Made by a program: the position numbers and the translations under genes. Source: Minisyncoccota bacterium (lineage in GTDB: Bacteria > Patescibacteriota > Minisyncoccia > Phycocordibacterales > UBA9973). From it: a DNA stretch of 64,000 nt. Location: assembly GCA_041664605.1 (NCBI GenBank), contig JBAYKO010000003.1, forward strand, positions 6,858 to 70,857, in the 5' to 3' direction. The notes under the pieces are model-generated. The model saw nothing but the letters and a program-made list of their open reading frames with translations, did not search any database and was not told where the DNA came from. Shown here in pieces: positions 518 to 21,913 of the stretch (the stretch's first letter is position 1; each line of letters opens with the position of its first letter).

Positions 518-870
518 ATATAATCATTACCGCGATTATTTCTATTGTTTTCATATTGAGACGTTAGGTGTGCAGATTCAGATTTAGTAATAGTACTAAT
601 ATACACTCCAAACTTAACACGACTAACAGTAGAACTTTTAATTTCTTTGTTAATTTCTCCACCACCTTCAACAAATTGAAGCACTCGAATTCCTGCTTTG
701 CCTCCAGTTTTTGTGGTATCTTCAGCACTAACTGCAATATCAAATTCAACTGTTTGGTTACTATCTTTATGAGATAATAAATGCATATCACGACTAGATT
801 CTTTTCGCGTTTCTTCAACAGCATCAACTACATCTTTTATTACACTTTTCACAAATTCTTTTAATTCCAT
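514..870 (-). CDS. hypothetical 118-aa protein lying between the RM A and S subunits
   Basis: ORF is tightly packed in the operon; its stop overlaps the hsdS start. No motif recognised. Confidence 0.4.
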   Translation of the reverse strand: MELKEFVKSVIKDVVDAVEETRKESSRDMHLLSHKDSNQTVEFDIAVSAEDTTKTGGKAGIRVLQFVEGGGEINKEIKSSTVSRVKFGVYISTITKSESAHLTSQYENNRNNRGNDYI

Positions 871-871
871 A

Positions 872-1363: not shown

Positions 1364-1366
1364 ATT

Positions 1367-3316
1367 TTAAAATTTAATTTTTTCTTTACTAATAAATTTC
1401 ACAAATTCTTCCGCGATATCGTCCAAATCGTGGTCAATTATTTTCTTGCCTTTTAAGTCATACATAACATTCCCATCTTTGTCTTTCCTGTAAATATAAT
1501 CCCCCGAATTATCTTTCCCGCCCTTTTTCGAAACTGCCATAAATATCGGATAATCTTCTAGTGGTTTTTCATTTTCTTCCCATTTTTGTAAAAACAAAAC
1601 GCTAGTTTTAACTCCAGTATGCGGTTTAAAAGTATTTCCATGAAGCCCAACCACTGACAAAATTCGTGCTTTATCAAAAAGAAATCTGCGAACATATTCG
1701 GCATTTGTATTGTTAAAAATTCCTTGAGGTAAAACTATTGCCATGCGTCCGCCCGGTTTTAGGAAACTCAAATTTCTTTCAATAAATAAAATATCACGAG
1801 TTACTTTGTTTTGATGTTTATTGGTTTTGTGAAAATCTTTGTCCCATTTAAAACCTAAATCATATTTGTTTAAAAGTGTGCCTTTTATTTCTCCGGCAAA
1901 AGGCGGATTGGTAAGAACGATATCAAAATTGAAATCATTCATTTTTTCTTGATTTCTTCTGTTTTCTTCGCCATCTTTTGGATGAGCTAAAAATTGCCTG
2001 AATCTATTTCTTGCATCTTCATTCCAAACTTCTGAATCTAAGGAGTTGGCGTAAGTGACATTGGTTTTTCCATCGCCAGCGATCAACATCATAGCTTTAC
2101 CGATTTTTACAGAACGAGGATCAAAATCTATACCAAAAAGATGTTTTTCGGCATATTCTTTTTGTTTCATTTTATATTCATTACCATATTTTTTCTCATT
2201 TATTTCATTTTCCCAAACATACTGCATCGCATGAAGTAAAAATCCGCAACTGCCTGAAGCGGTGTCAATAATCATATCTTTAGGACTTGGAGCAAGCATC
2301 TTTACTGCCATATCAATAACTGGTCTCGGAGTAAAATATTGTCCTTTTTGCCCTTTTGACTCTTGAACAATAAGATATTCAAAGGCTTCGTCTATAATCT
2401 GTAAATTTGAACCAAAAAGACGATATTTTTGCAAAAGAGAAACTGCTGGAATAATTACATTTTCTGGAATTTCTATTTCTTCATTTGGCTTAAAAACATC
2501 TCTCCATTCTTTTCTGGCTTCTTCAAAAAGACGTGAGATATTATTTAGATTTTCTTTATTTGTTTCCCCTGCTATTACTCGAAAACGTCTGTTTTCATTT
2601 CTTGGAGTTTCTAGTTCGTCATACAATTTCGCATAAATAAGTTTAAAAATTTCTTCAAAAGAATTCACCCCACTATTTGCCAGAACAACTTCTTCTAAGT
2701 CAGAAATAAGCTGTTTTAAATCAACAACTGTTTCTAAGTCATTATAAGTAAGTTTTTTAGAACGAACATCATCAACAGTTTCATTAAATTTTGGAATATC
2801 CGGTAAATCTTCAAAAAGATTCGGGTCTGTACGTAAAATATTATTTTGAATTTTTCCATCGGTCAAAACTAAAATCGGAGCACCTGTGGCATTAGCATAA
2901 CTTTTTAATTGACCAAGTCCATCTTTCACATCTGGCTTTTTGACTTCAACAATTAAGTAAGGAGTTTGCATATCTTCTCGGTAAATAACAATATCAGCTC
3001 TTTTAGCACTGATCTCACGACCAAATTGAACGTGAACTTCTACATCCATTCTATTTAAAGGATATTTGTAATGGTTTTTTAATTTGTAAATCATAAGCTG
3101 GCGGACTATTTCTTCTGGCTTACTTAGATTTTTTTCTTCATTAAAAATTAAAATATCTTTGTCTCTTTTTAAACATTTAACATAAAACTTACCTTTTTCT
3201 TTTTCAAAAATGTCTAGCACTTCATTTATATCTACATCATGAAAAACAGATAGACCAAAAATTGCATCTTGATTTTTAAAAACTTTATTTATTATTTTGT
3301 TAGTTGTTTCTTTCAT
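1367..3316 (-). CDS. restriction-modification fusion protein: N-terminal PD-(D/E)xK nuclease (HsdR-N-like) + gamma-class N6-adenine DNA methyltransferase (BcgI-A-like architecture)
   Basis: N-terminal motif ADIVIY..PYLIVEVKKPD (D..EVK). C-terminal half has the NPPF catalytic motif (TNPPFAGE) and AdoMet-binding region (IIDTASGSCGFL). Length of 649 aa is close to BcgIA. Confidence 0.75.
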   Translation of the reverse strand: MKETTNKIINKVFKNQDAIFGLSVFHDVDINEVLDIFEKEKGKFYVKCLKRDKDILIFNEEKNLSKPEEIVRQLMIYKLKNHYKYPLNRMDVEVHVQFGREISAKRADIVIYREDMQTPYLIVEVKKPDVKDGLGQLKSYANATGAPILVLTDGKIQNNILRTDPNLFEDLPDIPKFNETVDDVRSKKLTYNDLETVVDLKQLISDLEEVVLANSGVNSFEEIFKLIYAKLYDELETPRNENRRFRVIAGETNKENLNNISRLFEEARKEWRDVFKPNEEIEIPENVIIPAVSLLQKYRLFGSNLQIIDEAFEYLIVQESKGQKGQYFTPRPVIDMAVKMLAPSPKDMIIDTASGSCGFLLHAMQYVWENEINEKKYGNEYKMKQKEYAEKHLFGIDFDPRSVKIGKAMMLIAGDGKTNVTYANSLDSEVWNEDARNRFRQFLAHPKDGEENRRNQEKMNDFNFDIVLTNPPFAGEIKGTLLNKYDLGFKWDKDFHKTNKHQNKVTRDILFIERNLSFLKPGGRMAIVLPQGIFNNTNAEYVRRFLFDKARILSVVGLHGNTFKPHTGVKTSVLFLQKWEENEKPLEDYPIFMAVSKKGGKDNSGDYIYRKDKDGNVMYDLKGKKIIDHDLDDIAEEFVKFISKEKIKF

Positions 3317-3952
3317 TTAATTTATTGTGCTTAAATTTAATATAACCTTTCCTTCGAAAACTATTTCTTCGGGAATTATTTTAATAATGTCATAGTTTGG
3401 GTTTTCCGGCTTTAAAAAAATTTTTGAACCTTCGACCATAAATCTTTTAACAGTTGTGCCGTCAGAATTCCTAGCCACAACAATATCTCCATTTTTAAAC
3501 GATTTACTTTTTTGAATTAAAAGTTTATCGCCATCATTTATGTTGGCATTAATCATTGAATCTCCATGAACTTGAACAATAAAAACATCTTCTGCTCTTT
3601 TTATTTTTTCTTCTGGAATAATTCCAGTTGGAACTTCCATCCATTTAAATTCAACATCTTGAAATGATTCTGTAAAAGGACCAGCCGAAGAAATCCCAAC
3701 CATTGGAAACATTTGTTTGCCTAAAATTTTAAAACCAAGTGGAGTTATTTTAATACTTCTAGCTGAACCCTCGCTTCTTTTGAGAGTTTGTGATTTTTCT
3801 AATTTTCCTAAAAGATCAATAATTGATTGATTGGAAGCAACTTTCAAATTTTCTCTCATTTCTTCAAAACTAGGTGGAAAGCCCGTGTTTTTAATAAAAT
3901 CATAAATAATTTGGAGAAGTTCTTTTTGCCTTGTGGTTATAGATAATTTCAT
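3317..3952 (-). CDS. lexA: LexA-family repressor (wHTH + S24 peptidase)
   Basis: N-terminal LexA DNA-binding fold (TRQKELLQIIYDFIKNTGFPPSFEEM..LEKSQTLKR). AG cleavage site (SSAGPF). Ser in GDSM and Lys in VKRF form the dyad. Stop abuts the downstream RM gene start (3316/3317). Confidence 0.8.
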   Translation of the reverse strand: MKLSITTRQKELLQIIYDFIKNTGFPPSFEEMRENLKVASNQSIIDLLGKLEKSQTLKRSEGSARSIKITPLGFKILGKQMFPMVGISSAGPFTESFQDVEFKWMEVPTGIIPEEKIKRAEDVFIVQVHGDSMINANINDGDKLLIQKSKSFKNGDIVVARNSDGTTVKRFMVEGSKIFLKPENPNYDIIKIIPEEIVFEGKVILNLSTIN

Positions 3953-4113: not shown

Positions 4114-4377
4114 TTATGAAAGATGTTTTGAAACAAGTTTTGTCATTTCAAACATATCTACTACTGACTTACCACCAAAAACTTTTTTTAAGTTTTCGTC
4201 AGCAACTATATTTCTCTTATTTTTAGGGTCTTGAAGATTATGCTTCTTGATATATACCCAAAGAGCCTTGACCACCTCGGAACGAGGCATTGGACCCTTA
4301 CCCACAACTGCTGATAAATCAGCACTAATCGTTAAAGGCTTCATAAAACCAGAGTTTGCTTTTTTTGTTGTTACCAT
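4114..4377 (-). CDS. SWIB/MDM2 domain protein
   Basis: 87 aa; LTISADLSAVVGKGPMPRSEVVKALWVYIKKHNLQDPKNKRNI matches the SWIB fold signature. Confidence 0.75.
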   Translation of the reverse strand: MVTTKKANSGFMKPLTISADLSAVVGKGPMPRSEVVKALWVYIKKHNLQDPKNKRNIVADENLKKVFGGKSVVDMFEMTKLVSKHLS

Positions 4378-4585: not shown

Positions 4586-5650
4586 TTATATTTTCTTATA
4601 CCTTGTAGCACGGCCTTGCCCAATACGCTTAATTTTGTTTAAGCGGAGTAATTTTTCTATTGATTGATTGACAGTAGGACGACCAACGTCAGTATATTTT
4701 ACAATATCCCCAGCACTAGCATCTTCCACACTTCCGATATAATTCCAAACTTCCAATTGTTTCTGAGATAAAATATCCTCTAAATGTTCAGTCTCAAGAA
4801 GTGCAATAGCTCTTATACTTTGTTCCTCAACAACACTCAAAAAGAATAGAAGCCATGCTTCGATTGATTGATTTTTTGTTTTAAATGTCCCCTGACTTTG
4901 ACGTAAGGTAGTGTAATATTCTTCTTTTCGTTTTTCAATAATTTGTTCATGCGAAACATACGGCATATATAAATAGCCAGCACGAAGTAAGAGAATATTT
5001 GTCAAAATACGAGAAAGACGACCATTTCCATCTTTAAATGGATGAATTTTTAAAAATTCTACTAAAAAATTACCAATGACAAGTAAGGGGTGTATTTCTT
5101 TCTTTTCTAATTCAGAATATGTCCATTCAACAATTTCAGTCATTTCTTTTTGAGTAAGCCAAGCTTGTGTAGTTTCAAAAATAATCTGCCCTATTTCTCC
5201 ATTTTCTTTTTGAATCGCAACAGCATTTTCTTCTTGTTTGTATTTACCAGAATGTAATTTGTCTTTTTCTGAATACTTCAACATTGCTTTATGTAAGTGT
5301 TGTATTACACCTTCACGAAGTGGTAACGTTTCAAAACTATCAAAAATATTTGATAGTAATTCAAGATACCCTTTCACTTCTTGTACATCTCTATCTCGAA
5401 ATTTTGTTGTTGAGAGACCACGCATAACTCTTTCTACTTCTTCATCCGACAATTGTGAGCCTTCTATACGAGTAGAAGCCCCTGAGGAAGTGATAAGTAC
5501 TGAATGATGAAGAGTTGTTAGAATAGACGGGGTAAGTTTACTTCCAAAACTCCATTTACCTTTAATCTCATCTATACGAGCAATAAACTCCCAAACTTTT
5601 CCGTCGAGTTTTATTAAACGCTTATTAAATTGGTTGTTATTTTTATCCAT
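4586..5650 (-). CDS. fic: Fic-family (FIC domain) protein, class II with N-terminal inhibitory motif and C-terminal wHTH
   Basis: Canonical Fic motif HPFKDGNGRLSR. Inhibitory helix motif STRIEG ((S/T)xxxE(G/N)) near the N-terminus. Confidence 0.85.
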   Translation of the reverse strand: MDKNNNQFNKRLIKLDGKVWEFIARIDEIKGKWSFGSKLTPSILTTLHHSVLITSSGASTRIEGSQLSDEEVERVMRGLSTTKFRDRDVQEVKGYLELLSNIFDSFETLPLREGVIQHLHKAMLKYSEKDKLHSGKYKQEENAVAIQKENGEIGQIIFETTQAWLTQKEMTEIVEWTYSELEKKEIHPLLVIGNFLVEFLKIHPFKDGNGRLSRILTNILLLRAGYLYMPYVSHEQIIEKRKEEYYTTLRQSQGTFKTKNQSIEAWLLFFLSVVEEQSIRAIALLETEHLEDILSQKQLEVWNYIGSVEDASAGDIVKYTDVGRPTVNQSIEKLLRLNKIKRIGQGRATRYKKI

Positions 5651-5807: not shown

Positions 5808-5842
5808 GGGGGGCGGAGGCGTTGCCTCCGCCCCCCTTTCTG
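5808..5842. repeat. GC-rich hairpin GGGGGGCGGAGGC-gtt-GCCTCCGCCCCCC-tttctgt; right (inverted) copy of the fic-flanking repeat
   Basis: Reverse complement of 4510-4543 including the loop (aac/gtt) and flank (acagaa/ttctgt). Confidence 0.7.
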
Positions 5843-5900
5843 TGCCTTCCACAAGCTAAAAATCTCCCGAAGGGGAGATTTTCTTGTATTTTGTGGTCAC
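5840..5900. repeat. ~60-nt structured repeat copy A (CCACAA..hairpin AAAATCTCCCgaagGGGAGATTTT..TTGTGG)
   Basis: About 80% identical to the copy at 5979-6038. Each copy is a nested hairpin. Confidence 0.55.
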
Positions 5901-5978
5901 GAATATTTTTTTGTCGTCACAAAAAAATTTCTCGACCCCGGCTCGGCTTTTTGTCTACTGACAAAATATGCCTGTGCC

Positions 5979-6038
5979 TTCCACAAACTAAAAAATCCCC
6001 AGCAGTGGGGATTTTTTTACGTTTGTGGACCTTATTGG
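5979..6038. repeat. ~60-nt structured repeat copy B (CCACAA..hairpin AAAATCCCCagcagtGGGGATTTT..TTGTGG)
   Basis: Direct repeat of 5840-5900. Confidence 0.55.
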
Positions 6039-6244: not shown

Positions 6245-6403
6245 CTAAGCATAATTTATTTTATTCTGGAATTTCCAGACTGCATTCATATAAGTAACAA
6301 GTGCCGTAAGCTCGTCTCGGGCACGGGCTTTGTCTACTGGATGGCCGAATTCTTCTAGATATACAGCCATATATTTTTCTATCTGTTCTTCACTTATTTG
6401 CAT
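6245..6403 (-). CDS. possible small ORF (52 aa), hypothetical
   Basis: ATG at 6403, stop at 6245. Sits at the start of the GC-elevated island. Below the ORF-track length cutoff, so weakly supported. Confidence 0.25.
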   Translation of the reverse strand: MQISEEQIEKYMAVYLEEFGHPVDKARARDELTALVTYMNAVWKFQNKINYA

Positions 6404-7112
6404 ATTCTATAAAAGACGGGAGTGTTTTATATTTTCCAAAGTTTTCACCAGTATTTGCATTAGTACCGGAAAGATACATACTAGTAATTGTATTAAAAAC
6501 TTCAAAAACATCATCAGAATCTTCGAAGTTTCCGCCAAAATTTGCACCAGGTTGCATATCGGTAACAAACATACATGCATCCCAAGGATTTTTACCTAAA
6601 AGTCCAGCAGCTGCCCAAGAATAAATTAATTCTGATAACATCTCATACCAGATATAATAACGCTCTATTTTTTCAAGATCAGAATCGCTTCCACTAATAG
6701 CACTTTCTATCATTTTAGAGTAATTTGAAAAGCGTATGTCTGTATTGTATTTATTTGTTGTTGATCTAATAGGGATGTTTTCAAGTAATAAAGCGTCTAA
6801 ATCAGGGAGTATTTTTTCTACTTGTATTTTTCTCTTTATCTCAACTAACCAATTGAACGCTATATTATAATCAGAAAATCCACTACTATCATATTTTATC
6901 CCTAATTTAAAATCCTCTTTACCTTGTAAAGTAAAAGAATTCAAGATAAATGGCCAGGATGCTTGTAGCGTATATAAATCATAAAACATATTTCTGACTA
7001 CCTTGCTGGAATATTCTTCTCTAGAATACTTTTTACGCCACTCCAAAAGAACGCTGTATAGTTTAGATAAAATTTCATCTTGCAATAATAAGGTTTCATT
7101 TTTATTTTCCAT
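6390..7112 (-). CDS. hypothetical protein (240 aa)
   Basis: Long ORF with no recognised motif; lies inside the higher-GC island. Confidence 0.5.
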   Translation of the reverse strand: MENKNETLLLQDEILSKLYSVLLEWRKKYSREEYSSKVVRNMFYDLYTLQASWPFILNSFTLQGKEDFKLGIKYDSSGFSDYNIAFNWLVEIKRKIQVEKILPDLDALLLENIPIRSTTNKYNTDIRFSNYSKMIESAISGSDSDLEKIERYYIWYEMLSELIYSWAAAGLLGKNPWDACMFVTDMQPGANFGGNFEDSDDVFEVFNTITSMYLSGTNANTGENFGKYKTLPSFIEYANK

Positions 7113-7120
7113 ATAAGATA

Positions 7121-8023
7121 TTATTTATTACTTCTTACAAGCAGGGCTCGAATACCTACTAATGTTCGTTCCGGTATAATAAAGGAACCGAGAAAGCTAC
7201 TTTTATCCTGATTGTCGTCTATATATCCTCCTCCTGAGACCATCCTCCCGCTCAGTCCTTGCCGGCTGATCATTCTTTCTACTATCTTTTCCGCCCCTTG
7301 ATTTGGAGTAGCAACGCCAACATAGTTCTGCGTTGAAAATCCTATCAATTTGTAAGCTGACAGGTTTTTCAAAAAAGTGTTGTATTCTATTTTGAATTTC
7401 CTCACATCATCACTTTCGCTAGCATTGCCAAATCCGATAAGATATGAGGGGTCATACATTACCCATCGGTACTTGGACGAGTTTTCTGCTAGAGCACAGA
7501 TATTGCCTGTATTTTCATATAGAGTGTTCGTTTTAGTGGTAAAGTCTGTTCTTAAATCATTAAGCACTTTCTTTTCTCCTAAGCCATTTAGTGTTTTAGC
7601 TGTGGCACAAAATGTCTTAAAAGACACTAATGTAGGGCTGGCTAGGAATGTGTCTATGGTTGCGATTGATTGACTATAGTCAGCTTTAGGGAATCCACCA
7701 GGTTGTCTACCAATAGAAGTCTCTTGGGATAGAGAGATACTAAAATCAACTAGTGGATTAAAAACAGGAGAAGGATTACCAGTGACAGAAGCAGGTTTAT
7801 TTTGACCCTCTGATTTTTCCTTTAATTCTATAACCTGTTTTTTCAGATCTTTGATTTCTTTATCGTTCGTAGCTGTAGGGACAGGAGTAGAGATTTGAAC
7901 TGTCGGTGTCTCTACCGCCTTTTTATGAAACCACGAAAATGGGTTCCACCATGAGGCTAGGGCAACAGATGGGATGATTAGAAAACTCAAAACAATTATT
8001 ATTGGAAGTTGTATTTTTTTCAT
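7121..8023 (-). CDS. hypothetical secreted protein (signal peptide)
   Basis: N-terminus MKKIQLPIIIVLSFLIIPSVALASWW is typical of a Sec signal peptide. Confidence 0.55.
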   Translation of the reverse strand: MKKIQLPIIIVLSFLIIPSVALASWWNPFSWFHKKAVETPTVQISTPVPTATNDKEIKDLKKQVIELKEKSEGQNKPASVTGNPSPVFNPLVDFSISLSQETSIGRQPGGFPKADYSQSIATIDTFLASPTLVSFKTFCATAKTLNGLGEKKVLNDLRTDFTTKTNTLYENTGNICALAENSSKYRWVMYDPSYLIGFGNASESDDVRKFKIEYNTFLKNLSAYKLIGFSTQNYVGVATPNQGAEKIVERMISRQGLSGRMVSGGGYIDDNQDKSSFLGSFIIPERTLVGIRALLVRSNK

Positions 8024-9111: not shown

Positions 9112-9290
9112 ATGGTTTTGGTTACTTTAGTGATAATAATTTGATTTGACAGGTATTCGATCACTGCTTTGTCGGAAACAGAGAATCCGGCATTCTTTAG
9201 AAAGTTATTTGATATGACAATCTTTGGTAAGACAGTATCCGTATACTTTCTGGGGTGATTCATGTAACCAATTTGGATTTCTCTTTTCAT
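9108..9290 (-). CDS. AbrB/SymE-like swapped-hairpin small protein (60 aa)
   Basis: HPRKYTDTVLPKIVISNNFLKNAGFSVSDKAVIEY..IIITKV resembles the SpoVT_AbrB / SymE-toxin pattern (P.I.L.G.WL..GF..GD.V.V...G.I.I). Confidence 0.5.
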   Translation of the reverse strand: MKREIQIGYMNHPRKYTDTVLPKIVISNNFLKNAGFSVSDKAVIEYLSNQIIITKVTKTI

Positions 9291-9610
9291 ACAGATTTTT
9301 TATGATCAACCGGCTCTATTTGACGATAATAGAAAAGAAACACTGGACGACGAAACCGTTTTAGGACATTACCGTTGGCATCCTTTGTTTCCACATAAGT
9401 GATCGACTCAATGGCTTTTTCACCTTTACGAACTTTAAACCCTAATTTCAGCCACGAATTGAATGTTCGCATATTGTGATAACAGTCTAGGTTACGGAGT
9501 TCTGACTTGCCATACTTCGCAATAACCTGTTCCTCGACCATTGACTTCGTTTCTTCTGATCCTGTATAGGCGGACACTGGACCAGAGAGTATTTCATTAA
9601 TATTTTTCAT
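9287..9610 (-). CDS. small protein with an ArdC-N-like (DUF1738-like) ssDNA-binding motif
   Basis: MRTFNSWLKLGFKVRKGEKAI resembles the ArdC N-terminal motif (W.TF.QA..LG..VRKGEK) as recalled. The protein is shorter than a full ArdC-N domain. Confidence 0.4.
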   Translation of the reverse strand: MKNINEILSGPVSAYTGSEETKSMVEEQVIAKYGKSELRNLDCYHNMRTFNSWLKLGFKVRKGEKAIESITYVETKDANGNVLKRFRRPVFLFYYRQIEPVDHKKSV

Positions 9611-9922: not shown

Positions 9923-10567
9923 ATGCCTAATAATTTTGTGGAAGAAAGCTATGTCCTCGACACGCACTCTATCCTAAATGACCTAAAACGAATCAGAGAG
10001 GGCGAAACCGTAGACGGGATGATCACCATTCATAACGAAACAAAAGGGATCCAGTTGCATTATTGGAGCCTTGATAAGCATGGCGAAAAGTATATTGTCC
10101 TCAGTCTGCTTAATGTCGAACCACAGGAGATCGCCCTACAGTCCTTCCCCTTGAAATATGGCGATAGGAGCTTCTATACCTGCCCTAGTTGCTTAAAACG
10201 GTGCAATAAGCTGTATGTGCGTTCCGATGAGTGGACCGGCTTTAAATGCGTTAGATGCCAAGGATTGCGGTATCGGCTGACCTCTCTTAATTTGTATTCC
10301 AGAATAGGGCGAATGGCGTACCGGACCGATCAGCTAGACAAGTTCTTTAATAATGGGAAAAAGACGCCAAGGATCTTCTATCGTGGACAGGAAACGAAGC
10401 CGTTTATTGCATATTCAAAAAAGATGTGGAAACTAGGCATGCAAGACAAAGTACAATACGGTTTTAAATTAATTTCAGAAATTAAAAATGCATCTCAGAG
10501 ATTTTCGGCGATGTCTAATGATTTTGGTAAAAGTGGGAACCTAGCTGGTCGGCGGACCAATTTGTAA
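9923..10567 (+). CDS. hypothetical protein with a CxxC..CxxC zinc-ribbon (214 aa)
   Basis: CPSCLKRC..CVRCQ motif pair; no other motif recognised. Confidence 0.5.
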   Translation: MPNNFVEESYVLDTHSILNDLKRIREGETVDGMITIHNETKGIQLHYWSLDKHGEKYIVLSLLNVEPQEIALQSFPLKYGDRSFYTCPSCLKRCNKLYVRSDEWTGFKCVRCQGLRYRLTSLNLYSRIGRMAYRTDQLDKFFNNGKKTPRIFYRGQETKPFIAYSKKMWKLGMQDKVQYGFKLISEIKNASQRFSAMSNDFGKSGNLAGRRTNL

Positions 10568-10650
10568 TATTTTTGGAGTGTTTTCTAGTTCAAGAATAGG
10601 TGGGCCTGAAAAAATTCAGCATAAATTTTTAGACTTTTCTGTTTACTAAA

Positions 10651-11676
10651 TTATCTTGTCCATGCAATATAGTATTCAAAACGGACATGTGTTTTATCTG
10701 GAGACGAATTTATTCTGGGAATTTCAAATTGAATTACTGACCTTACATCTCCTGCAAATGGTTCTGCGTGAATATTGCATAGATGTGCCATAAGGGTTTC
10801 AAAAGATGTCTGTAATCTTTCAAGTGTATTGGCCATAAACTTTGATATTAACATTTCATGAAGAGGAGTTTTGGGGTCTATGTGTGATAGTATCGGTGGC
10901 CTTACATGACCTTCTTTATTTAAAGAGTAATCTTGTATATCAAGCTCTGCACCTGTAGTAGTATGTTCAATAGCATTACGTAGACTGCGTATGAGTTTTA
11001 ACCATGATACAAGTCCTCCAGCAAATTTAGTACTTGGGTCCGTTGGTCCTTTTTCCTTTTCAAACTTTTCTTGAAGTTGCTCCGCCCAAATTTTCCCTCG
11101 CTTCTTATTATTCTTCGTAATATCAGGGTAAAACAACTGTGCCATTTCAATCAGATGTAAAATTGCGTAATCTGAATTATTTATAAACTGTTTTGTCCTT
11201 TGTTCTAGCTTATGTATGGTAGGAAGATGAAGTGACTGGTCTTCCTCGAGTTTACCTTTGAATGACAAATTTGCCTTGTCTTCTTCGGTAATATAGTCAT
11301 TCGCAAGTTCGTGTAGTGCTGTTATTTCTTTAAGGAAAGCGAGTCCAATATTTAAACCCTTTTTGCAGTCAATCGTACTAGGCAGTCCTTGCTCTCCAAA
11401 TAAGGCTTGTGCTTGAAGAAGTGTCCTGCCAACAAATAGCTCATCTGAACCATACGAAAGAATTTTCTGCTGACTTTGTTTAGGTATTGCTGAATTAGTT
11501 CTTTCTGGATCAACAGAATCAGCAAGAATAGGAGTATAAATACCTTTTCTTGTTACAACCAGCAAAGAATCACCAGTATTTATCATGGCGGAAATACCTA
11601 GGTCTTCTTTGTCTCCAATTTTGATCCATCCTCCTTCATTACGATATGCAAACGGATCTTTATTTTCTGTTGTCAT
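10651..11676 (-). CDS. 341-aa partner protein of the ABC ATPase; carries an RNxxxH (HEPN-like) motif
   Basis: Start lies 2 nt after the ATPase stop. Motif LIRSLRNAIEHTTTG fits R[NDH]xxxH. Confidence 0.55.
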   Translation of the reverse strand: MTTENKDPFAYRNEGGWIKIGDKEDLGISAMINTGDSLLVVTRKGIYTPILADSVDPERTNSAIPKQSQQKILSYGSDELFVGRTLLQAQALFGEQGLPSTIDCKKGLNIGLAFLKEITALHELANDYITEEDKANLSFKGKLEEDQSLHLPTIHKLEQRTKQFINNSDYAILHLIEMAQLFYPDITKNNKKRGKIWAEQLQEKFEKEKGPTDPSTKFAGGLVSWLKLIRSLRNAIEHTTTGAELDIQDYSLNKEGHVRPPILSHIDPKTPLHEMLISKFMANTLERLQTSFETLMAHLCNIHAEPFAGDVRSVIQFEIPRINSSPDKTHVRFEYYIAWTR

Positions 11677-11677
11677 T

Positions 11678-14266
11678 TTATGTTATTAAATTTTTAACTT
11701 CTTGAATATCTTTTTTTAATTTTTCAATATTATCCGGCATGGCATGCTGTATCATTTCGTTTGATTGATCATGAGCATCTATATACCGACTAAATTCCTC
11801 GTGGAGTTCCTTTGCTTTTTCAAGCTTTGATTTGTTAAGGGTTGCTCTAGGTATATTACGCATCTGAATTTGCTCGGACCATCTTGTAACAACTTTCCCA
11901 AATATCTTTTCTTCCACGGCCTTTTCTATAGCTTTTCTTAAGTTACTGTAGGCGGTTCTAATACCATCTCTTTTACTCTCACCGCTTAAACTTGAAAGAG
12001 AAGTGAACATCCCATCAACCTTTTGAACTTGTGCATTAAAGTTAATAGATCCAGCATAATCATTTTCAGTTACTACACCAGCATCGATATCATTTTTCTC
12101 GACTTTATGAAAGGCTGCTTTTATACTATCTACTTCATGATTTTCCTTTTCAACTTGTTCGTGTAAATAGTTAGCAAACATCAAATCATGAGTGAAAACA
12201 ATGACTTGTCGTGATTCAGATTCCTTGACAATTCTTTTGGCGATTTTTTCTTTTCTGTCATGGTCAAAACTGGTAGCAGGATCGTCAAATATGACAGGGG
12301 TCTTTTCACCTTGCATTGCCAATTCAGCAAAAAAATCAGAGAGTGCAACTGCCTTTTGTTCTCCTTCGCTTAAAAACTGATTAATATGGTCCATCCCGCT
12401 TAAGCTTTTCTCTCTCATTTGCGAACCATATTCACCTCGAAAATTCAAGTTTACATTTGGTGCATCGAGACTTGCGACTTCAGTGTTGAATTGCCGTTTA
12501 AATGAATCTGACACTAATTCCTTCCATGCTTTCATCCCGAGCTCTGTTATAGGTCTGGTATTAAATTTAACCGCAAGAGAGCTTGCTTTTGCTATCCATT
12601 GATTAATTCCGATGTATTTTTCTACATGTCTTTTATATTTTGAAAATTTCTGAATATCTTTCATTTCAACCTCTGCCAGATTCAACTCTACTGAACGACG
12701 GTTAAAATTTCGCTGTGCTTCATTAAGCTGTTTTATATCGTTTTCAATTTTCGCTTTCACTAATCCAGTACTGGTTATAAGACCACTGATATTCAACGGT
12801 TTCAGTTTACCTGCTTTTTTCGTGTTCAAGCATCCAATAACCTGCTGGATTAAAGCATCCGCATTATCCATGGCGTCAAATGAAGAATGAGCTAGTTTTT
12901 TCGTAAGTATTTTTACGAAGTCGTTTTTTTTATATGGAAAATTATTACTAAATGAAATATCTTCCAAATTTGAAAGTGCTTCATCAAGCTCATTCTCTAT
13001 GTCCTCGAAATCATTTGACTCCTCTTCTTCGAAGAGCTTCCTGTAGAGTTGTATGAGTTTGGTCGCTGTCTTGCTAAGCTTTTGCTGACAATAGATACAA
13101 TTATCAGCCTCCTCGGGATAATTTTCATGATAGGCAATATCAGTATACGATTCTCCTGCTTCGATGAATTTTTCCCATTCATCCGATGCCATTTCCGGAA
13201 TTTTATAATCATCCAGTGTTTTTCCTTTCTTTTCCGTAAATTTCTTCTTGCTTATGTTGAATTTTTTTATCAATTGTAAATAAGTGCGAACACTCGCTGG
13301 CGAAGTCTCTGTTTTAATTTCTTCCAATTTTTCCTGCAGGGCAGTCACTTTCTGTAATCTTGTTTGTAGATTTTCAAATTGCAGGTCCATGTTTTGTAAG
13401 CTCTTGGACTCTTTGATGTTCGCTAACAGTGCTTCCTTGGCAGACTGACCCCACTGAGGAAGTTTATTTAAGTCTGCAACTTTTGTTGAAGGACCAATAC
13501 TATTAATAAATTTTCCTATTGTAGTTCCACTATTGAAAATACCTTCAAGTGGCGGTTTGTCGTCTTCTGCTTTCTGTATATGGTTTGTCATTCGCTGCTG
13601 TAAACCAGTCAATGCACGTGAAGCAGATTGGAATAATTCAAAACCATATGGTTGATAGGAAAAATCGAGTCCTTCGGTTAAGTAGATTGGAATACATTCT
13701 CCATCAAAAATACTCATTCGATTGAATGGGGTTAATGTATTATGGCCATCCCACATAACTGTTCGATCCGTACCATTATTAAACACAATCTTTACCTTAC
13801 ACTCATTCTTTTTTTTTGAGTTATTTATATTTTGCCAAATATCTTCCTGCGTTCTCGATGCACTGATTCTCTTCAAAATACGGACAAAGCCTGATTTACC
13901 ACTTCCATTTTTACCATAAATTACAGTGAGTCGTGAGTGGAATGATAGTGTTGCCCCTTTGACTAGTGCATTCACGCCATCCTCATGTACTAAATTCTTA
14001 AGTTCAAATCCATTGTTAGCAGTCAAAGGTCTAGCAATTACCGGAGTAGGGGTTTTAATGTCGGTACTTTTTTCTTTGGCATCACTCAGTCCGTGTGTAA
14101 TCAAAAAATCTTCGTATATTGTGTCTAAAAACGTATTGTCAGGAACGGCACGGATGGAAATGATCCGATCCAGTAACGGACTCATCCATTGTTCACGATC
14201 TTGAGCCCCAAATTCCTTTAGGTAGTCGTCAGCTTTAGTTTTTGGAATAGGAGTAACTTCTGACAT
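11678..14266 (-). CDS. large ABC-type ATPase with a coiled-coil insert and central CxxC zinc hook (RloC/Rad50-like), plus a ~160-aa C-terminal extension
   Basis: Walker A GKNGSGKSG (~aa 118). CIYC at ~aa 388, midway through the coiled coil. ABC signature LSEGEQ, Walker B VIFDDP and H-loop VIVFTHD at ~aa 640-700. C-terminal tail contains SRYIDAH (Rx4H). Confidence 0.8.
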   Translation of the reverse strand: MSEVTPIPKTKADDYLKEFGAQDREQWMSPLLDRIISIRAVPDNTFLDTIYEDFLITHGLSDAKEKSTDIKTPTPVIARPLTANNGFELKNLVHEDGVNALVKGATLSFHSRLTVIYGKNGSGKSGFVRILKRISASRTQEDIWQNINNSKKKNECKVKIVFNNGTDRTVMWDGHNTLTPFNRMSIFDGECIPIYLTEGLDFSYQPYGFELFQSASRALTGLQQRMTNHIQKAEDDKPPLEGIFNSGTTIGKFINSIGPSTKVADLNKLPQWGQSAKEALLANIKESKSLQNMDLQFENLQTRLQKVTALQEKLEEIKTETSPASVRTYLQLIKKFNISKKKFTEKKGKTLDDYKIPEMASDEWEKFIEAGESYTDIAYHENYPEEADNCIYCQQKLSKTATKLIQLYRKLFEEEESNDFEDIENELDEALSNLEDISFSNNFPYKKNDFVKILTKKLAHSSFDAMDNADALIQQVIGCLNTKKAGKLKPLNISGLITSTGLVKAKIENDIKQLNEAQRNFNRRSVELNLAEVEMKDIQKFSKYKRHVEKYIGINQWIAKASSLAVKFNTRPITELGMKAWKELVSDSFKRQFNTEVASLDAPNVNLNFRGEYGSQMREKSLSGMDHINQFLSEGEQKAVALSDFFAELAMQGEKTPVIFDDPATSFDHDRKEKIAKRIVKESESRQVIVFTHDLMFANYLHEQVEKENHEVDSIKAAFHKVEKNDIDAGVVTENDYAGSINFNAQVQKVDGMFTSLSSLSGESKRDGIRTAYSNLRKAIEKAVEEKIFGKVVTRWSEQIQMRNIPRATLNKSKLEKAKELHEEFSRYIDAHDQSNEMIQHAMPDNIEKLKKDIQEVKNLIT

Positions 14267-14356: not shown

Positions 14357-15436
14357 TTATTTTATAAACCTTACCTGTAGGTTTAATTTCATAAAGTACC
14401 GTCCACCTTCTTTGAATACACTTATTGGATATCGAGTTGTACTCGGTGTATCAAGCTTGGTGTTATTTATTAAATAATCCCTAAAATCTTCTATATTGTA
14501 TAAATAATAACAAAGCACATCACCGTCTTTTTTTACCAACAAAAAACCACCCAAACTAGTAAGTATCCCATTCCATTCTTTATTAGGCATCATCCCTAAA
14601 GCCATCACGCTTAAAAATTCTTTTATTTTATGAATTGGTTGAATATTTTGCTTGTCGGCTATTGGAAAATTTATTTCCAATAAATCAGAAAAACTAGTCG
14701 CACCTCTGGAATAGAAAGATAATAGAATTTTTGCTATGTGCAACGCCAAATTACTATCAATCAACGACATATTGTTTTTAAATTTCTCACTATCAACATT
14801 ATGCAAAACTATGTTATATCCACTACTTATCAAGAGACCGACATTATCCTTCACATTTTTAGCGTGTAGCTTTGGTAATTTAATTGGTACCTTCATTTTT
14901 TCATCGAGAATTTCAAAAGTGAAGCTTGTCGCCTTTGATGAGTTAAGAAGCGTTGACGGACTGCCCAGTTGTGACTTTATACTAAAACCAATTTCAGGAC
15001 TTGGTTTTTTCGTCTTTACATCAAAAACCACTAAGTCTAAGTCTTTTTTATCAGAGCTAGATGCTTTAATAATTTCCTTCTGCAAAATTTGCATCATTTC
15101 TGACCCAACTTCTAATGGAAAAGATCGACCCTCATTTTTGACTGAGAGATTATTGAACATTCTATTTAAAATTGACTCGATTTTTTTTACTTTTACAGAG
15201 GCTACTTTATTTTTTCCAGAAAAAATATCAACGACTTCTTGACCTATTTCATATGTAACTTTTTCCTTTCCTGCTTTTTCAGAAAAAATTATTTTTAGTA
15301 CCTTGTAAAATAAATCTTCTCTACGATTTTGATATTTGTCTGCAGCGTATGCACCACCATTTACCAATAGAAAAGCTAGTGCGTACAACTCACTCCACTC
15401 CCCAGTATTGCCAGTTGTCTGTTTTTGATTAATCAT
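14357..15436 (-). CDS. putative type II restriction endonuclease cognate to the upstream m5C-MTase
   Basis: Start overlaps the MTase stop by 8 nt. No catalytic motif recognised, so the call is positional. Confidence 0.45.
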   Translation of the reverse strand: MINQKQTTGNTGEWSELYALAFLLVNGGAYAADKYQNRREDLFYKVLKIIFSEKAGKEKVTYEIGQEVVDIFSGKNKVASVKVKKIESILNRMFNNLSVKNEGRSFPLEVGSEMMQILQKEIIKASSSDKKDLDLVVFDVKTKKPSPEIGFSIKSQLGSPSTLLNSSKATSFTFEILDEKMKVPIKLPKLHAKNVKDNVGLLISSGYNIVLHNVDSEKFKNNMSLIDSNLALHIAKILLSFYSRGATSFSDLLEINFPIADKQNIQPIHKIKEFLSVMALGMMPNKEWNGILTSLGGFLLVKKDGDVLCYYLYNIEDFRDYLINNTKLDTPSTTRYPISVFKEGGRYFMKLNLQVRFIK

Positions 15437-16328
15437 AATGATTTTCTAACGCCTCAATTATTTTTTTTGCATAATCCTGTATTGCATAAATTGCCACACT
15501 GTTGCCTAACTGCTTCATGGCCTGGCTTTCTGTAACAGGAAATATAAAATCTTCAGGAAAGCCCTGCATTTTTTTCCCTTCTTTTGAAGTAATTCTTTTT
15601 ACTTTTCCGTTCACCAAATAGCTGTCCCAATTTCGTCTGTCGGTAATATTGGACCCCTTACCACCAACTCTAAGAGTAAAACCAACTTCTTTATTTACCT
15701 TTGCTCCATCAAAGACATCGGACATGGTAAATTTTAAAGGTCTTTTTTGTGGAAATTCAAAAGGTATTTTTTTGTTTTTAAAACCAATCATAAACAAACG
15801 GGGGCGGTTCTGTGGCAGGCCGTGCTCCGATGCTTTTACAATATTAAAATGAAGAGAATATCCCAAATCTTTAGTCAAAACATTACTAATTACTTCAAAT
15901 GTTTTTCCATTATCGTGAGCAAGTAAACCCCTGACATTTTCCAAAAAGAATGCTTTTGGTTTTTTTACACGAATAATTTCTGCAATGTTATAAAACAAGG
16001 TCCCACGTGTATCATTAAAACCTTTCTTGAAACCAGCCTGACTAAATGGCTGACACGGAAAGCCTCCAGTTAAAATATCAAAATTGGGTATTTTTTTTGG
16101 ATCGATTTTTGTAATATCTCCAACAAAATTTCCACTAGAAAATAATTCGGGGTCAATTTTTTCAAAATTTGTCTGGTATGTATTTCTTGCATGAGAATCC
16201 CATTCTGACGAAAAAACGCACTTGGCACCAACATTATTAAAAGCTATATGAAAACCTCCAATTCCTGCGAATAGATCAATAAATGTAAATTTTTTCTTTT
16301 TCATTTTAATATTTGCCATATATAACAA
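15429..16328 (-). CDS. DNA (cytosine-5)-methyltransferase
   Basis: Motif I DLFAGIGGF, motif IV GFPCQPFS, motif VI FLENVRGL, motif VIII QNRPRLF, motif X GNSVAI. Confidence 0.9.
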   Translation of the reverse strand: MLYMANIKMKKKKFTFIDLFAGIGGFHIAFNNVGAKCVFSSEWDSHARNTYQTNFEKIDPELFSSGNFVGDITKIDPKKIPNFDILTGGFPCQPFSQAGFKKGFNDTRGTLFYNIAEIIRVKKPKAFFLENVRGLLAHDNGKTFEVISNVLTKDLGYSLHFNIVKASEHGLPQNRPRLFMIGFKNKKIPFEFPQKRPLKFTMSDVFDGAKVNKEVGFTLRVGGKGSNITDRRNWDSYLVNGKVKRITSKEGKKMQGFPEDFIFPVTESQAMKQLGNSVAIYAIQDYAKKIIEALENHYD

Positions 16329-16406: not shown

Positions 16407-17372
16407 ATGGACAGCATCAAAATACCAGATACGGGAGGACACGAAGGAACACAAAATCAGTGTTTTATTGTGCTTGATAAAAGTGGCAATGAACTTGTGG
16501 GGTGTATAAAAGAACTAACTTGGCTTTTTCAGCTTTTATTAAAAAAGGGAGACGGAGTTTATACGGATGGAGTCACAACGGCAGTCAAAGTAAGCACTCT
16601 CTTGGCGGGGCCTTTCTTCAAAGATAAAAACACAATACAAACAGATGTATGTACTCTAGTAATGCCAGTAATCGCAGATAAGGGCTTTCTTAGAAAATAT
16701 GACATGACAAAGTATCAGCCACACTACGAATACAATGGGGATTCTTTTGTTCAGGATGGCTCGGTCTTTTTTACTGACTTTACAGACGATTTTTTAATAG
16801 CATACATGGAAGACCGGCTTGGCATAAAAACTGGGCCTGGAATAAATGCTAATCAGAAAAGTAAAGTCATTTTACAGAAAACAAAGAAAAAGCGGTTACA
16901 GCTTCCGGACCTTCCGAACGATCTCAAGTGGGAAGAAATAACAATAAGGTTTCTAAATGGTGGTGAAGTACAAATCACGGCGAAAGGACTGGTTTATCAG
17001 GTAAGCCATGAACTAATGGGCTTTCAGGATGAAAAAACCAAGAAGCCTAACTTTCAGTGGAATTTGTTGAAACTACTTTCACTAAAGGGCGGTTACTTGA
17101 ATTGGAGTAACAACAGGGAGCTAGACATAAAAACAAGAGATCGGGTAAAAAAACAAAAACAGGGGCTGTCTGAGAGGTTAAAAGTATATTTTCATTCCGT
17201 TGAGGGCGACCCATTTTTTAACTACAGAACGGAAGATGGTTATAAAATCAGAATACAACTCATACCGGAACAAGGTAGCGATATTCAAGATACCATTGAA
17301 GCAATCAGTAATACCATGGATTATTACGACGAAGATAATGATGTAAACATCGGAGACTATTCCAAGGAATAA
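16407..17372 (+). CDS. hypothetical protein (321 aa), cargo gene
   Basis: Has its own promoter and terminator; no motif recognised. Confidence 0.5.
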   Translation: MDSIKIPDTGGHEGTQNQCFIVLDKSGNELVGCIKELTWLFQLLLKKGDGVYTDGVTTAVKVSTLLAGPFFKDKNTIQTDVCTLVMPVIADKGFLRKYDMTKYQPHYEYNGDSFVQDGSVFFTDFTDDFLIAYMEDRLGIKTGPGINANQKSKVILQKTKKKRLQLPDLPNDLKWEEITIRFLNGGEVQITAKGLVYQVSHELMGFQDEKTKKPNFQWNLLKLLSLKGGYLNWSNNRELDIKTRDRVKKQKQGLSERLKVYFHSVEGDPFFNYRTEDGYKIRIQLIPEQGSDIQDTIEAISNTMDYYDEDNDVNIGDYSKE

Positions 17373-20258: not shown

Positions 20259-21902
20259 ATGCAAAGCAATGTATTAACAGTAGTAAAAATTAAATTAAGT
20301 TGTATTATGAAAAATATGAAGACTGGAATTATATATACAAGAGTAAGTTCAGACGAACAGATCAAAGGTACCTCCCTCGGTGAACAGGAGGAATTTTGTC
20401 GTAAATATTGTGCCGAAAAGGATATAACCATAGTGCGTGAGGTATTCCGTGAAGAAGGAGCTTCTGCCAAGAGTACCGATCGGGCAGTGTTTTTGAGTGC
20501 TATTGAATACTGTCGAAAAAACAAGGTAGACTTTTTTGTCGTTTGGAAGTGTGATCGCTTTGCCAGAAATTCAACCGACCATTACGCAGTCAAAAGCACC
20601 TTATTAAAATACGGCACCCGGCTTGACTCTGTAACAGAGCAGATCGGAGACGATCCAACTGGTAAACTAATGGAGGGTATGATGGCTATTATTGGCGAAT
20701 TTGATAACGATATACGAAAACAGCGTTGCAGTGGCGGAATGCTTGGCAGACTGAAACAAGGAATATGGCCATGGAAACCACCTATTGGTTATATCTGTGA
20801 AAATAACAAAAAGCAGGACAGGAAGAAAGAACAGCCGGACCCGATTAACCCGGTTATATTTCCTATCATTCAGCGTGGCTTAAAAGAATTCGTGGCTGGA
20901 CAATACACCATGACGCAATTAGCAGAAGCATATAATCGCTATGGGCTTGTTGCTCCAAATGGTAAAAAAATAAACGCAAAATTAGTAGACAGATTGTTTA
21001 CACATCATCTGGCCTATTATGCTGGTATATTGAATAATCCATTTTTCCCCAAGAACGGCGAAGCTTCATATGAGGGTAAGCATACTCCCATGATCACCAA
21101 GGAAGAATACAGGGCGATCTTAATGATCCGAGCAGGTAAAAGGGTGCAGACAATGAAACGGAGTCGCCACAACCCAATATTTCCCCTCAAAGGTAGCGTA
21201 TTTTGCTCTAAATGCGACAAGAGGCTAACTGGAAGCTGTTCCCGTGGGAATGGCGGGGTTTATGCCTTCTACCACTGCTATAACGTCTCATGTGACCTCC
21301 GTGGCAAGACAGTCCAAAAGAAAATCATTGAAGACGCCTTTATTAAATTTCTGGAGTCTGTTACTCCTAATGAAAAGTTTTTAAAACTGTTCGAGGAGAT
21401 AGTCATACAGCACTGGACCAACAAAGGCCATGTATTCGAAGTACAGACTAATAAATATGCAAAAGAGATAGCCGAATTGAATCAAAAGAAAAAGAGGATC
21501 TATGAAATGAGAGAGGACGGCGAATACACCAAGGAACAATGCACAGATAGATTGAACGAAATAGAAGACAAAATAGTCGCATTGGATATTTCTTTAAACG
21601 AGGCAAAAATAGAGCAGTTTGATGTTGAAGCTACAGTGAAATATGCAGTAAGGACCATTACTGATTTACCAAAACTTTGGTTTGATCTTGCACCGGAATT
21701 ACGCCCACGGTTCCAAAAGATGGTATTTCCCGAGGGAGTTCTCTATTCCAAAGAAGAAAGTTTTCGAACCAACAAATTGGCTTATATCTACGAGCTAAAA
21801 AAGAAAAAAGGAGCTCAAAGAACTCCTTTTTTCAACATAGTGGACCCTAGCGGATTCGAACCGCTGACCTCCTCATTGCAAATGAGGCGCTCTACCAGCT
21901 AA
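20259..21902 (+). CDS. large serine recombinase (integrase)
   Basis: Resolvase catalytic region GIIYTRVSSDEQ. Recombinase domain and Cys-rich zinc-ribbon (CSKCDKR..CSRGNGGVYAFYHC). Spacing of the catalytic Ser suggests the true start is nearer 20307 (MKNMKTGIIY). The 3' end overlaps tRNA-Ala. Confidence 0.85.
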   Translation: MQSNVLTVVKIKLSCIMKNMKTGIIYTRVSSDEQIKGTSLGEQEEFCRKYCAEKDITIVREVFREEGASAKSTDRAVFLSAIEYCRKNKVDFFVVWKCDRFARNSTDHYAVKSTLLKYGTRLDSVTEQIGDDPTGKLMEGMMAIIGEFDNDIRKQRCSGGMLGRLKQGIWPWKPPIGYICENNKKQDRKKEQPDPINPVIFPIIQRGLKEFVAGQYTMTQLAEAYNRYGLVAPNGKKINAKLVDRLFTHHLAYYAGILNNPFFPKNGEASYEGKHTPMITKEEYRAILMIRAGKRVQTMKRSRHNPIFPLKGSVFCSKCDKRLTGSCSRGNGGVYAFYHCYNVSCDLRGKTVQKKIIEDAFIKFLESVTPNEKFLKLFEEIVIQHWTNKGHVFEVQTNKYAKEIAELNQKKKRIYEMREDGEYTKEQCTDRLNEIEDKIVALDISLNEAKIEQFDVEATVKYAVRTITDLPKLWFDLAPELRPRFQKMVFPEGVLYSKEESFRTNKLAYIYELKKKKGAQRTPFFNIVDPSGFEPLTSSLQMRRSTS

Positions 21903-21913
21903 GCTAAGGGCCC
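21841..21913 (-). tRNA. tRNA-Ala (anticodon UGC)
   Basis: Manual cloverleaf fold. Acceptor GGGCCCT/AGGGTCC with the Ala G3:U70 pair. Anticodon stem CCTCA/TGAGG with loop TTTGCAA. T-loop TTCGAAT. Length 73 nt with no encoded CCA. Confidence 0.9.

Follow-up and report, generated by a model that had tools for sequence, protein, structure and literature searches.

The locus described here, part of a 64,000-nucleotide stretch of a Candidatus Paceibacterota (CPR) genome (the window, to which all coordinates refer), is best explained, at a probability we put at roughly 70%, as a stacked defence locus of three autonomous units, all transcribed the same way, on an integrative island with a serine recombinase. 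The units are an HpaII-type type II restriction–modification (R-M) system, an 862-aa RloC-like ABC ATPase-nuclease (putative) and a 341-aa stand-alone HEPN-like protein. The second and third units are probably a known kind of ATPase-nuclease and a new HEPN family, the RNase activity of both being putative. The reading draws on motifs and their conservation, on folds and gene contexts, and on a lack of co-occurrence of the two genes in related loci. CPR bacteria (Patescibacteria) have tiny genomes, and little of their immune repertoire has been mapped.

The R-M unit comprises a C-5 cytosine DNA methyltransferase (15429..16328, minus strand; Pfam DNA_methylase 4.1e-83, NCBIfam dcm 1.6e-82, PADLOC MTase_II 1.5e-101), which is the modification half of an HpaII-type type II system, and an HpaII-family type II restriction endonuclease (14357..15436, minus strand), matched over its full length by Pfam RE_HpaII (3.8e-77) and also by PADLOC REase_II (9.2e-69). 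These matches bear out the type II m5C R-M neighbour that had been proposed in the first-pass annotation. The two genes overlap by 8 nt.

The junction sequence places the ATPase gene (11678..14266, minus strand) 90 nt past the HpaII stop, with its own GGGAGG ribosome-binding site. Its product scores above the cut-offs for Pfam AAA_13 (2.5e-15) and SMC_N (1e-14), and comparison of the head relates it to Rad50, SMC and AriA. Both open reading frames and the motifs claimed for them are present on the minus strand, and every motif was verified at the nucleotide level. In the ATPase, Walker A (GKNGSGKS, aa 118-125, 13892..13915) is followed, after an insert of ~500 aa, by the C-terminal half of the ABC head (12185..12373), which holds the LSEGEQ signature (aa 632-637, 12356..12373), the VIFDDP Walker B (aa 658-663, 12278..12295) and the QVIVFTHD H-loop (aa 687-694, 12185..12208). 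Across 107 homologues the ABC motifs, including Walker B/D-loop, are 99-100% conserved: G118, N120, G123 and K124 are kept in 106, and S633, D661, D662, P663 and H693 in all. Near the midpoint of the insert lies a putative zinc hook, CIYC (aa 390-393, 13088..13099), in which C390 and C393 are likewise kept in 107/107 and which is followed by Q395 (94/107). The insert contains little Pro and Gly (~5%, against 13% in the head) but much E, K, Q, R and L; its heptad periodicity was not consistently significant in a crude test. A split ABC ATPase with a CxxC in mid-insert, as in Rad50 and RloC, had been proposed, and the AAA_13 and SMC_N matches, the conserved CxxC and the tail residues described next all agree with it.

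The C-terminal tail (aa 701-862, 11681..12166) is a putative anticodon-nuclease or degenerate HEPN domain. It carries the triad R777-x3-E781-x50-H832, of which the R, E and H are each kept in 105 of the 107 homologues, the spacing from E to H ranging from 48 to 53 residues. The first-pass annotation had instead picked out an Rx4H in SRYIDAH (aa 826-832, 11771..11791); its histidine is H832, but its arginine, R827, is kept in only 34/107, and the residues that are truly conserved in the tail are R777, E781, R795 and H832. Because C390 and C393 are present in all and H832 in nearly all of these diverse homologues, the motif features amount to more than chance. Neither a search of PDB sequences with the tail profile nor Pfam scans of all tail members gave anything meaningful.

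The 862-aa ATPase is a full-length member of PDC-S06, a single-gene candidate family in PADLOC. Models PDLC04888 and PDLC04891 match aa 14-860 with E ~1e-122, spanning profile positions 13-845 of 851 and so including the tail, and PDC-S06 is the sole PADLOC match when the tail is used alone. Our literature search found no experimental validation of PDC-S06, which is a computational candidate only, and an E. coli PDC-S06 protein is reportedly not called by DefenseFinder. No model named RloC or PrrC was matched by the whole ATPase or its tail in PADLOC, or by the whole ATPase in NCBIfam, although PADLOC-DB may not contain such models. RloC, the wobble-nucleotide-excising anticodon nuclease of Geobacillus kaustophilus (Davidov & Kaufmann 2008, PMC2610378), is defined by Arg-X3-Glu-X36-52-His and a length of 658-897 aa (PMC2610378). 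By motifs, size and spacing the 862-aa ATPase has the defining layout of RloC: a single polypeptide within that size range, ABC motifs split by an insert with a central CX2C (the helical nature of the insert and zinc binding being putative here), a C-terminal Arg-x3-Glu-x(48-53)-His triad in the family and an AAA_13 match. The tRNase activity of the ATPase is putative, as is direct homology to a characterised RloC. The two also share an occasional linkage to R-M genes, seen across the wide ATPase family. The differences are that PADLOC files the protein as PDC-S06, that it has a conserved N-terminal extension of ~95 aa, and that in its close CPR clade it usually stands at the end of an R-M operon, while R-M linkage of RloC occurs 'rarely'. 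For PDC-S06, the locus supplies a concrete mechanistic hypothesis centred on R777, E781 and H832.

PrrC, the tRNA-Lys anticodon nuclease of the type Ic EcoprrI R-M locus, resembles the ATPase in joining an ABC ATPase to a C-terminal R-E-H nuclease (putative here), and in the logic of a gene inside or behind an R-M operon acting as a second-line suicide RNase that guards the R-M system. However, PrrC is ~400 aa long without a coiled-coil/CxxC insert and always accompanies type Ic R-M, whereas the ATPase in the window accompanies type II HpaII. Its size, its insert of ~500 aa and this linkage set it apart from PrrC. The triad residues of G. kaustophilus RloC are R692/E696/H737 and those of E. 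coli PrrC R320/E324/H356; PrrC is activated by Stp.

In the close CPR clade, the usual place of the ATPase is at the end of an R-M operon, and the operons are of differing types. The gene comes last after HTH-m5C MTase-HpaII-Vsr (L094), after EcoRI-MTase-GmrSD/HNH (L096), after a type ISP-like R-M (L098) and after HsdS (L101), so that the clade is linked to type II (HpaII with or without Vsr), EcoRI-MTase plus GmrSD/HNH, type ISP-like and HsdS genes, again in contrast to the invariant type Ic partner of PrrC. R-M linkage is frequent in the small CPR sample alone (5/8 loci) and rare in the wider family (~5/50), which weighs against the explanation adopted here. A putative backup RNase in the style of PrrC and RloC sits on type II and other R-M systems rather than on the classical type I, which widens the 'R-M guard' idea.

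How the first two units would work together can be proposed by analogy. The HpaII-type system would be the first line, cutting unmethylated incoming DNA. The Rad50/SMC-like head and CxxC hook of the ATPase probably sense the status of DNA or the failure of the linked R-M system; release of the C-terminal R-E-H nuclease domain would then lead to cleavage of tRNA anticodon loops and a stop to translation, an abortive-infection backup like those of RloC and PrrC. The ATPase would act without a second subunit. What is said here, and of the HEPN-like protein below, about RNase activity with its targets and triggers, and about a role in defence, is inferred.

The third unit is the 341-aa protein (10651..11676, minus strand), which belongs to an unannotated family and is very probably a HEPN-fold protein, with RNase activity putative. 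The first-pass annotation had read LRNAIEH as a HEPN signature, and the motif is indeed present as R230-S-L-R233-N-A-I-E-H238 (10963..10989), at the C-terminus of helix 214-237. R233 and H238 of this putative active site are 100% conserved in 135 members at 23-45% identity, again more than chance would give, and R230, R233, N234, E237 and H238 are invariant in 30 close members. The structure model is confident and shows an up-down bundle of four helices; the motif ends helix 3, a polar N follows the R, as in an Rx4-6H, and an insert separates helices 2 and 3, all of which are part of the published description of HEPN domains (PMC3710099). A four-helix HEPN fold had been anticipated, and the model agrees with this. 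Foldseek against PDB returned no significant match. A second motif, D53-S-V-D56-P-E-R59 (DxxDPxR; 11500..11520), lies in a beta-rich N-terminal domain and is as strongly conserved among the 135 members (D56 100%, D53 99%, P57 99%, R59 98%).

No match to the 341-aa protein was found in Pfam, PADLOC, NCBIfam or PHROGs; a permissive Pfam scan with 30 family members gave only noise (Ribonuc_2-5A 0.039, HEPN_Apea 0.063), and the family profile found nothing among PDB sequences. The family comprises 1,056 clusters (>1,000 at 50% identity) of proteins of ~335 aa; a scan of viral contigs found no member. It is a sizeable annotation gap, with more than 1,000 clusters left as 'hypothetical' despite a clear catalytic signature. 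R-M linkage of ABC-HEPN and stand-alone HEPN genes is a recognised theme (PMC3710099). The nearest known systems are the MNT-associated HEPN toxins (SO_3166, PDB 5yep; HEPN/MNT 7ae2, 8xdj) and further stand-alone HEPN clades linked to R-M (Anantharaman et al. 2013, PMC3710099), which have in common with the 341-aa family an R-N-x-x-x-H that ends helix 3, the insert between helices 2 and 3 and, often, an R-M or defence neighbourhood. In contrast to those toxins, the family is more than twice their size at ~335 aa, has the extra N-terminal beta domain with DxxDPxR and beta inserts past the motif, has no adjoining MNT antitoxin, and shows only 9-13% sequence identity to them, with no model in the four databases recognising it. 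By analogy with other HEPN RNases, the protein probably homodimerises to form its Rx4H active site, and the N-terminal beta domain with the invariant DxxDPxR would control it.

It had been suggested that the ATPase and the 341-aa protein form a two-gene module, the HEPN protein and the ATPase tail making a composite RNase site or the smaller protein acting as an immunity or regulatory subunit. Several observations do point this way. The 341-aa ATG follows the ATPase stop after 1 nt (TAA-a-ATG), not after 2 nt as previously given, and has no Shine-Dalgarno sequence of its own, so that in this genome the gene is probably co-transcribed with and translationally coupled to the ATPase. In both proteins a helical bundle holds a conserved His of catalytic type, and HEPN RNases are generally dimeric in action. 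The link is local and not conserved, however. The 341-aa partner is absent from all 114 ATPase-family loci surveyed (100 of them with at least 1.1 kb of downstream sequence), including seven close-clade loci at 53-70% identity, and a search of 80 GTDB loci of ATPase homologues gave no match even at E<=10. Conversely, the ATPase is absent from all 14 other loci of the 341-aa family, including those of the closest homologues P0002 (66%, L089) and P0004 (60%, L090). Comparison of the 341-aa family with the ATPase tail by hhalign revealed no profile relationship (probability 0.3%). In addition, the ATPase family is catalogued by PADLOC as a single-gene system, and RloC works as one polypeptide (PMC2610378). 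The first-pass annotation had itself named absence of the 341-aa gene from most ATPase-carrying genomes as a refutation, and that is what the survey shows. As a conserved system the pair is refuted by the co-occurrence data, and an obligate two-gene system has scarcely any probability left. Since they are neighbours only in this genome, we regard the two as independent defence genes and not as a two-part machine; close spacing and corresponding motifs in a single genome do not suffice to define a system, and a composite HEPN heterodimer is not worth pursuing as a general mechanism. Coupled expression from a 1-nt gap without a Shine-Dalgarno sequence would also fit functional pairing, and to that extent counts against independence.

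Nor does the ATPase appear to have a different fixed partner. No neighbour is conserved across its 114 loci, and a search up- and downstream for an alternative partner found heterogeneous neighbours around 80 distant homologues. The gene downstream of the closest homologue (70% identity, L093) is unrelated, and downstream genes of ~115 aa are homologous only between L098 and L101.

The 341-aa family also travels alone, as mobile cargo often found behind R-M or defence operons or next to a ~440-aa serine recombinase; a homologous recombinase adjoins the family gene in four other loci, and a fragment of one in a fifth locus. It is quite improbable that the protein is not an RNase and is a helical bundle with another role, such as a recombination directionality factor or some different accessory of serine-recombinase elements, or a HEPN protein that binds RNA or nucleotides without catalysis. 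In 8/13 distinct contexts (the window, L081, L082, L083, L089, L090, L102 and L103; L091 and L092 repeat L090) the gene closes, or nearly closes, a co-directional cluster at its 3' end, overlapping the gene before it or following after no more than 50 nt. What lies upstream is different in each case, DUF2779-DUF4238 being among the defence operons joined. Together with an N-terminal motif as conserved as the Rx4H, these contexts could indicate a promiscuous terminal effector that has no fixed partner and serves any upstream defence operon, receiving a generic signal through the DxxDPxR domain. We consider this unlikely: in L084, L085, L086 and L087 the gene starts its own transcription unit, by a divergent or opposite-strand gene and near a recombinase, which argues for simple autonomy; close packing is a common trait of small CPR genomes; and no shared signal is known. 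A broader and tentative suggestion is that the 341-aa protein is the founder of a large family of unannotated stand-alone HEPN RNases with a DxxDPxR sensor, plugging in as effectors behind R-M and defence operons and on minimal serine-recombinase elements, and thereby a new abortive-infection or addiction class, prominent in CPR and reaching Rhizobium.

The stacked defence locus itself lies on an integrative element, as had been proposed earlier. When att-type direct repeats flanking the island were sought, the sole find was a pair of 57-nt hairpin repeats at 5840/5972, which does not recur at the tRNA-Ala end. At that end a large serine recombinase gene (20259..21902, plus strand; Pfam Resolvase 4.7e-29 and Zn_ribbon_recom, PHROG integrase 5.9e-73) abuts tRNA-Ala (21840..21913, minus strand). 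A Prim-Pol gene forms a further part of this context, and the GC content of the window rises from ~0.30 to 0.36-0.42 across roughly 6000-22000.

Both open reading frames lie on the minus strand where the first-pass annotation had placed them, the 862-aa RloC-like ATPase at 11678..14266 and its 341-aa partner at 10651..11676, and every motif quoted for them was confirmed at the nucleotide level. A single nucleotide separates the ATPase stop from the partner start (TAA-a-ATG), and at this junction the partner gene has no Shine-Dalgarno sequence. A strong GGGAGG precedes the ATPase gene, which lies 90 nt from the stop of an HpaII-family restriction endonuclease gene (Pfam, 3.8e-77). This gene and an m5C methyltransferase gene (4.1e-83) are both upstream of the ATPase and in the same orientation. 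The whole cluster sits within a GC-shifted block (∼0.36–0.42 against ∼0.30, roughly 6–22 kb) of the host genome, a Candidatus Paceibacterota MAG. The block also encodes a Prim-Pol/AAA_25 replicase, an ArdC-N-like gene and a large serine recombinase (20259..21902, +), whose 3' end overlaps a tRNA-Ala(TGC) gene on the opposite strand (21840..21913, −); this overlap suggests that the island integrated at or into the tRNA gene. The restriction-modification (R-M) neighbourhood and the integrative-element setting are thus borne out.

The further proposal, that the two genes form a defence module in which the partner completes a composite HEPN site or acts as an immunity or regulatory subunit, did not survive comparison with other loci. 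Among the 153 loci fetched, the ATPase family is present in 114 (100 of them with at least 1.1 kb of downstream sequence) and the partner in 14, with no overlap. No partner-like ORF was found in 80 GTDB loci with ATPase homologues, even at E≤10, nor any ATPase in eight metagenome loci with the partner. The lack of overlap extends to the nearest relatives of both proteins; what follows the closest ATPase homologue is a gene with no relation to the partner. Since, in addition, the putative HEPN domains of the two proteins show no relationship at the profile level, a composite two-gene HEPN system is unsupported. The ATPase and the partner do not form a module. In the window genome the two genes are likely, judging from their sequence, to be co-transcribed and translationally coupled, and this coupling seems to be a chance local result of a cassette having inserted there.

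Close ATPase homologues (53–70% identity) are the last gene after HTH-m5C MTase-HpaII-Vsr (locus L094), EcoRI-MTase-GmrSD/HNH (L096), a type ISP-like R-M system (L098) or HsdS-147 aa (L101); another is preceded by a DUF559/Vsr-like gene (L093), and those in L099 and L100 adjoin resolvase or recombinase genes. In the wider family R-M genes are only occasionally immediately upstream (∼5/50), mirroring the 'rare' linkage of RloC (PMC2610378). Partner homologues are preceded by a type ISP-like R-M system and three small genes (L089, 66% identity), by an SDH-protease gene and a 110-aa gene near a DpnII R-M system (L090, 60% identity), by EcoRI-MTase-GmrSD/HNH-DUF2779-DUF4238 (L103) or by a serine recombinase (L102). 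The same EcoRI-like methylase and GmrSD_N/HNH pair precedes the ATPase in L096 (2682..4968) and DUF2779-DUF4238-partner in L103 (364..2569); the two RNase-type genes appear to be interchangeable occupants of the 'trailing' position behind one R-M module.

Only one gene recurs beside the partner; it encodes a ∼440-aa serine recombinase, 70–92% identical among L084 (5390..6763), L085 (1803..3122), L087 (1646..2968) and L102 (3653..4978), with a fragment in L081. These loci may be minimal mobile elements carrying a HEPN gene. Between the recombinase and the partner-family gene, L084 and L085 have a divergently transcribed 394-aa protein; the 363-aa gene in the same position in L087 has no BLAST match to it. 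On the ATPase side, a ∼118-aa downstream gene, 78% identical, is common only to the L098 (7777..8130) and L101 (7611..7970) sub-clade; neither the window nor any other locus has it. In L093 a diversity-generating-retroelement-like pair of bAvd and reverse transcriptase (329..1695) lies ∼4 kb upstream of the closest ATPase homologue.

The ATPase carries Walker A GKNGSGKS (aa 118–125), CIYC (390–393), LSEGEQ (632–637), VIFDDP (658–663), QVIVFTHD (687–694) and SRYIDAH (826–832). Its scores for Pfam AAA_13 and SMC_N exceed the cut-offs, and over its full length (aa 14–860) it matches PDC-S06, a single-gene candidate phage-defence family of PADLOC (E ∼1e-122), which is also the only match of the C-terminal 162 aa alone. 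The head has relatives in AriA, Rad50 and SMC; no RloC or PrrC structure was among the PDB entries searched. The insert is poor in Pro/Gly and rich in E/K/Q/R/L, and a crude test for heptad periodicity was not consistently significant. Homologues were drawn from GTDB genomes, metagenomes and viral contigs. In this diverse set of 107 the ABC motifs hardly vary, C390 and C393 occur without exception, and R777, E781 and H832 are each found in 105 and R795 in 102. The 'Rx4H' proposed for the tail holds for its histidine, H832, whereas its arginine, R827, is kept in only 34/107; on this conservation the histidine seems meaningful and the Rx4H reading largely coincidental. RloC was defined by ABC motifs, a helical insert with CX2C, a C-proximal Arg-X3-Glu-X36-52-His triad and a length of 658–897 aa (Davidov and Kaufmann, PMC2610378). 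At the sequence level the family has the ABC motifs, the CX2C within a putatively helical insert and the triad, with 862 aa in the window protein and 48–53 residues from E781 to H832. By sequence, the ATPase belongs to a candidate family that was already on record and shows the traits that define RloC.

Our literature search found no experimental validation of PDC-S06 and nothing on RloC-like genes in Patescibacteria; in one preprint an E. coli PDC-S06 member was called by PADLOC and not by DefenseFinder. About 25 full-length family members are on viral or prophage contigs. The NCBI call of the ATPase in the source MAG has only 765 aa (P0031, 89% coverage). As the N-terminal ∼97 aa (13976..14266, −; e.g. 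W27) are conserved in homologues and PDC-S06 HMMs, the true start codon probably lies upstream of the deposited one.

The partner is recognised by no curated library (Pfam, PADLOC, NCBIfam, PHROGs). Its LRNAIEH motif lies within aa 230–238, and R230, R233, N234, E237 and H238 are invariant in 30 relatives from a word-indexed search. An exhaustive profile search returned 1,056 cluster representatives at E≤1e-3 (307 at ≤1e-30), nearly all ∼335 aa and matched end to end; the named members, Rhizobium leguminosarum proteins among them, are all 'hypothetical protein'. Among 135 members only 23–45% identical to the window protein, conservation reaches 100% at R233, H238 and D56 and at least 98% at D53, P57 and R59. 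The confident AlphaFold2 model (pLDDT 89.4, pTM 0.87) has an N-terminal beta domain, four long helices (104–138, 157–182, 214–237, 277–302) and beta inserts. The motif closes helix 3 and is followed by a polar Asn, and an insert lies between helices 2 and 3, as in the structural rules for HEPN of Anantharaman et al. (PMC3710099). A point against the HEPN assignment is that Foldseek against PDB gave nothing significant; on balance the partner is probably, but not certainly, a HEPN protein. Work from 2013 (PMC3710099) had already described ABC-HEPN proteins linked to R-M systems, together with stand-alone HEPN genes of at least 16 clades found near such systems. The partner is probably a new family within this known superfamily.

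The best supported reading is a stacked island of three autonomous units. The HpaII R-M system cuts unmethylated DNA. By analogy with RloC and PrrC, the ATPase would use its Rad50-like head and hook to detect damaged DNA, or that the linked R-M system has failed, and, once triggered, would unleash the R777/E781/H832 nuclease on tRNA, aborting infection. The partner would work by itself, as a homodimer with HEPN RNase activity under the control of its N-terminal DxxDPxR domain.

Several other features of the region may be recorded. Several island ORFs, of 321, 214, 240 and 300 aa (16407..17372, +; 9923..10567, +; 6390..8023, −), are without a match in any of four libraries (Pfam, PADLOC, NCBIfam, PHROGs). 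One of them, the 214-aa ORF, is convergent with the partner gene. The ArdC-N-like gene (9287..9610, −), whose 107-aa product weakly matches the N-terminal (anti-restriction) domain of ArdC, shares the island with an R-M system and an R-M-guard-type nuclease. At the left edge are two 57-nt imperfect direct repeats (5840..5896 and 5972..6028, 70% identical), each holding a GC-rich hairpin and, after it, a T run. They could represent either terminators in tandem or what is left of an attachment site; a search of the tRNA-Ala end turned up no counterpart. A second R-M-type gene (1367..3316, −; HSDR_N_2 and N6_Mtase/Eco57I, type IIG/ISP-like) is directly followed by a LexA repressor (3317..3952, −) and then a SWIB/MDM2-domain protein (4114..4377, −). 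The SWIB domain is seldom seen in bacteria apart from a few lineages. Just left of the island, 4586..5650 (−) encodes a protein of the Fic/DOC family (Pfam Fic, 5.6e-14) that has an HPFxxGNGR motif and, at its C terminus, a DIP2311-like HTH; DOC toxins have been reported in RloC-like R-M neighbourhoods (Anantharaman et al., PMC3710099).
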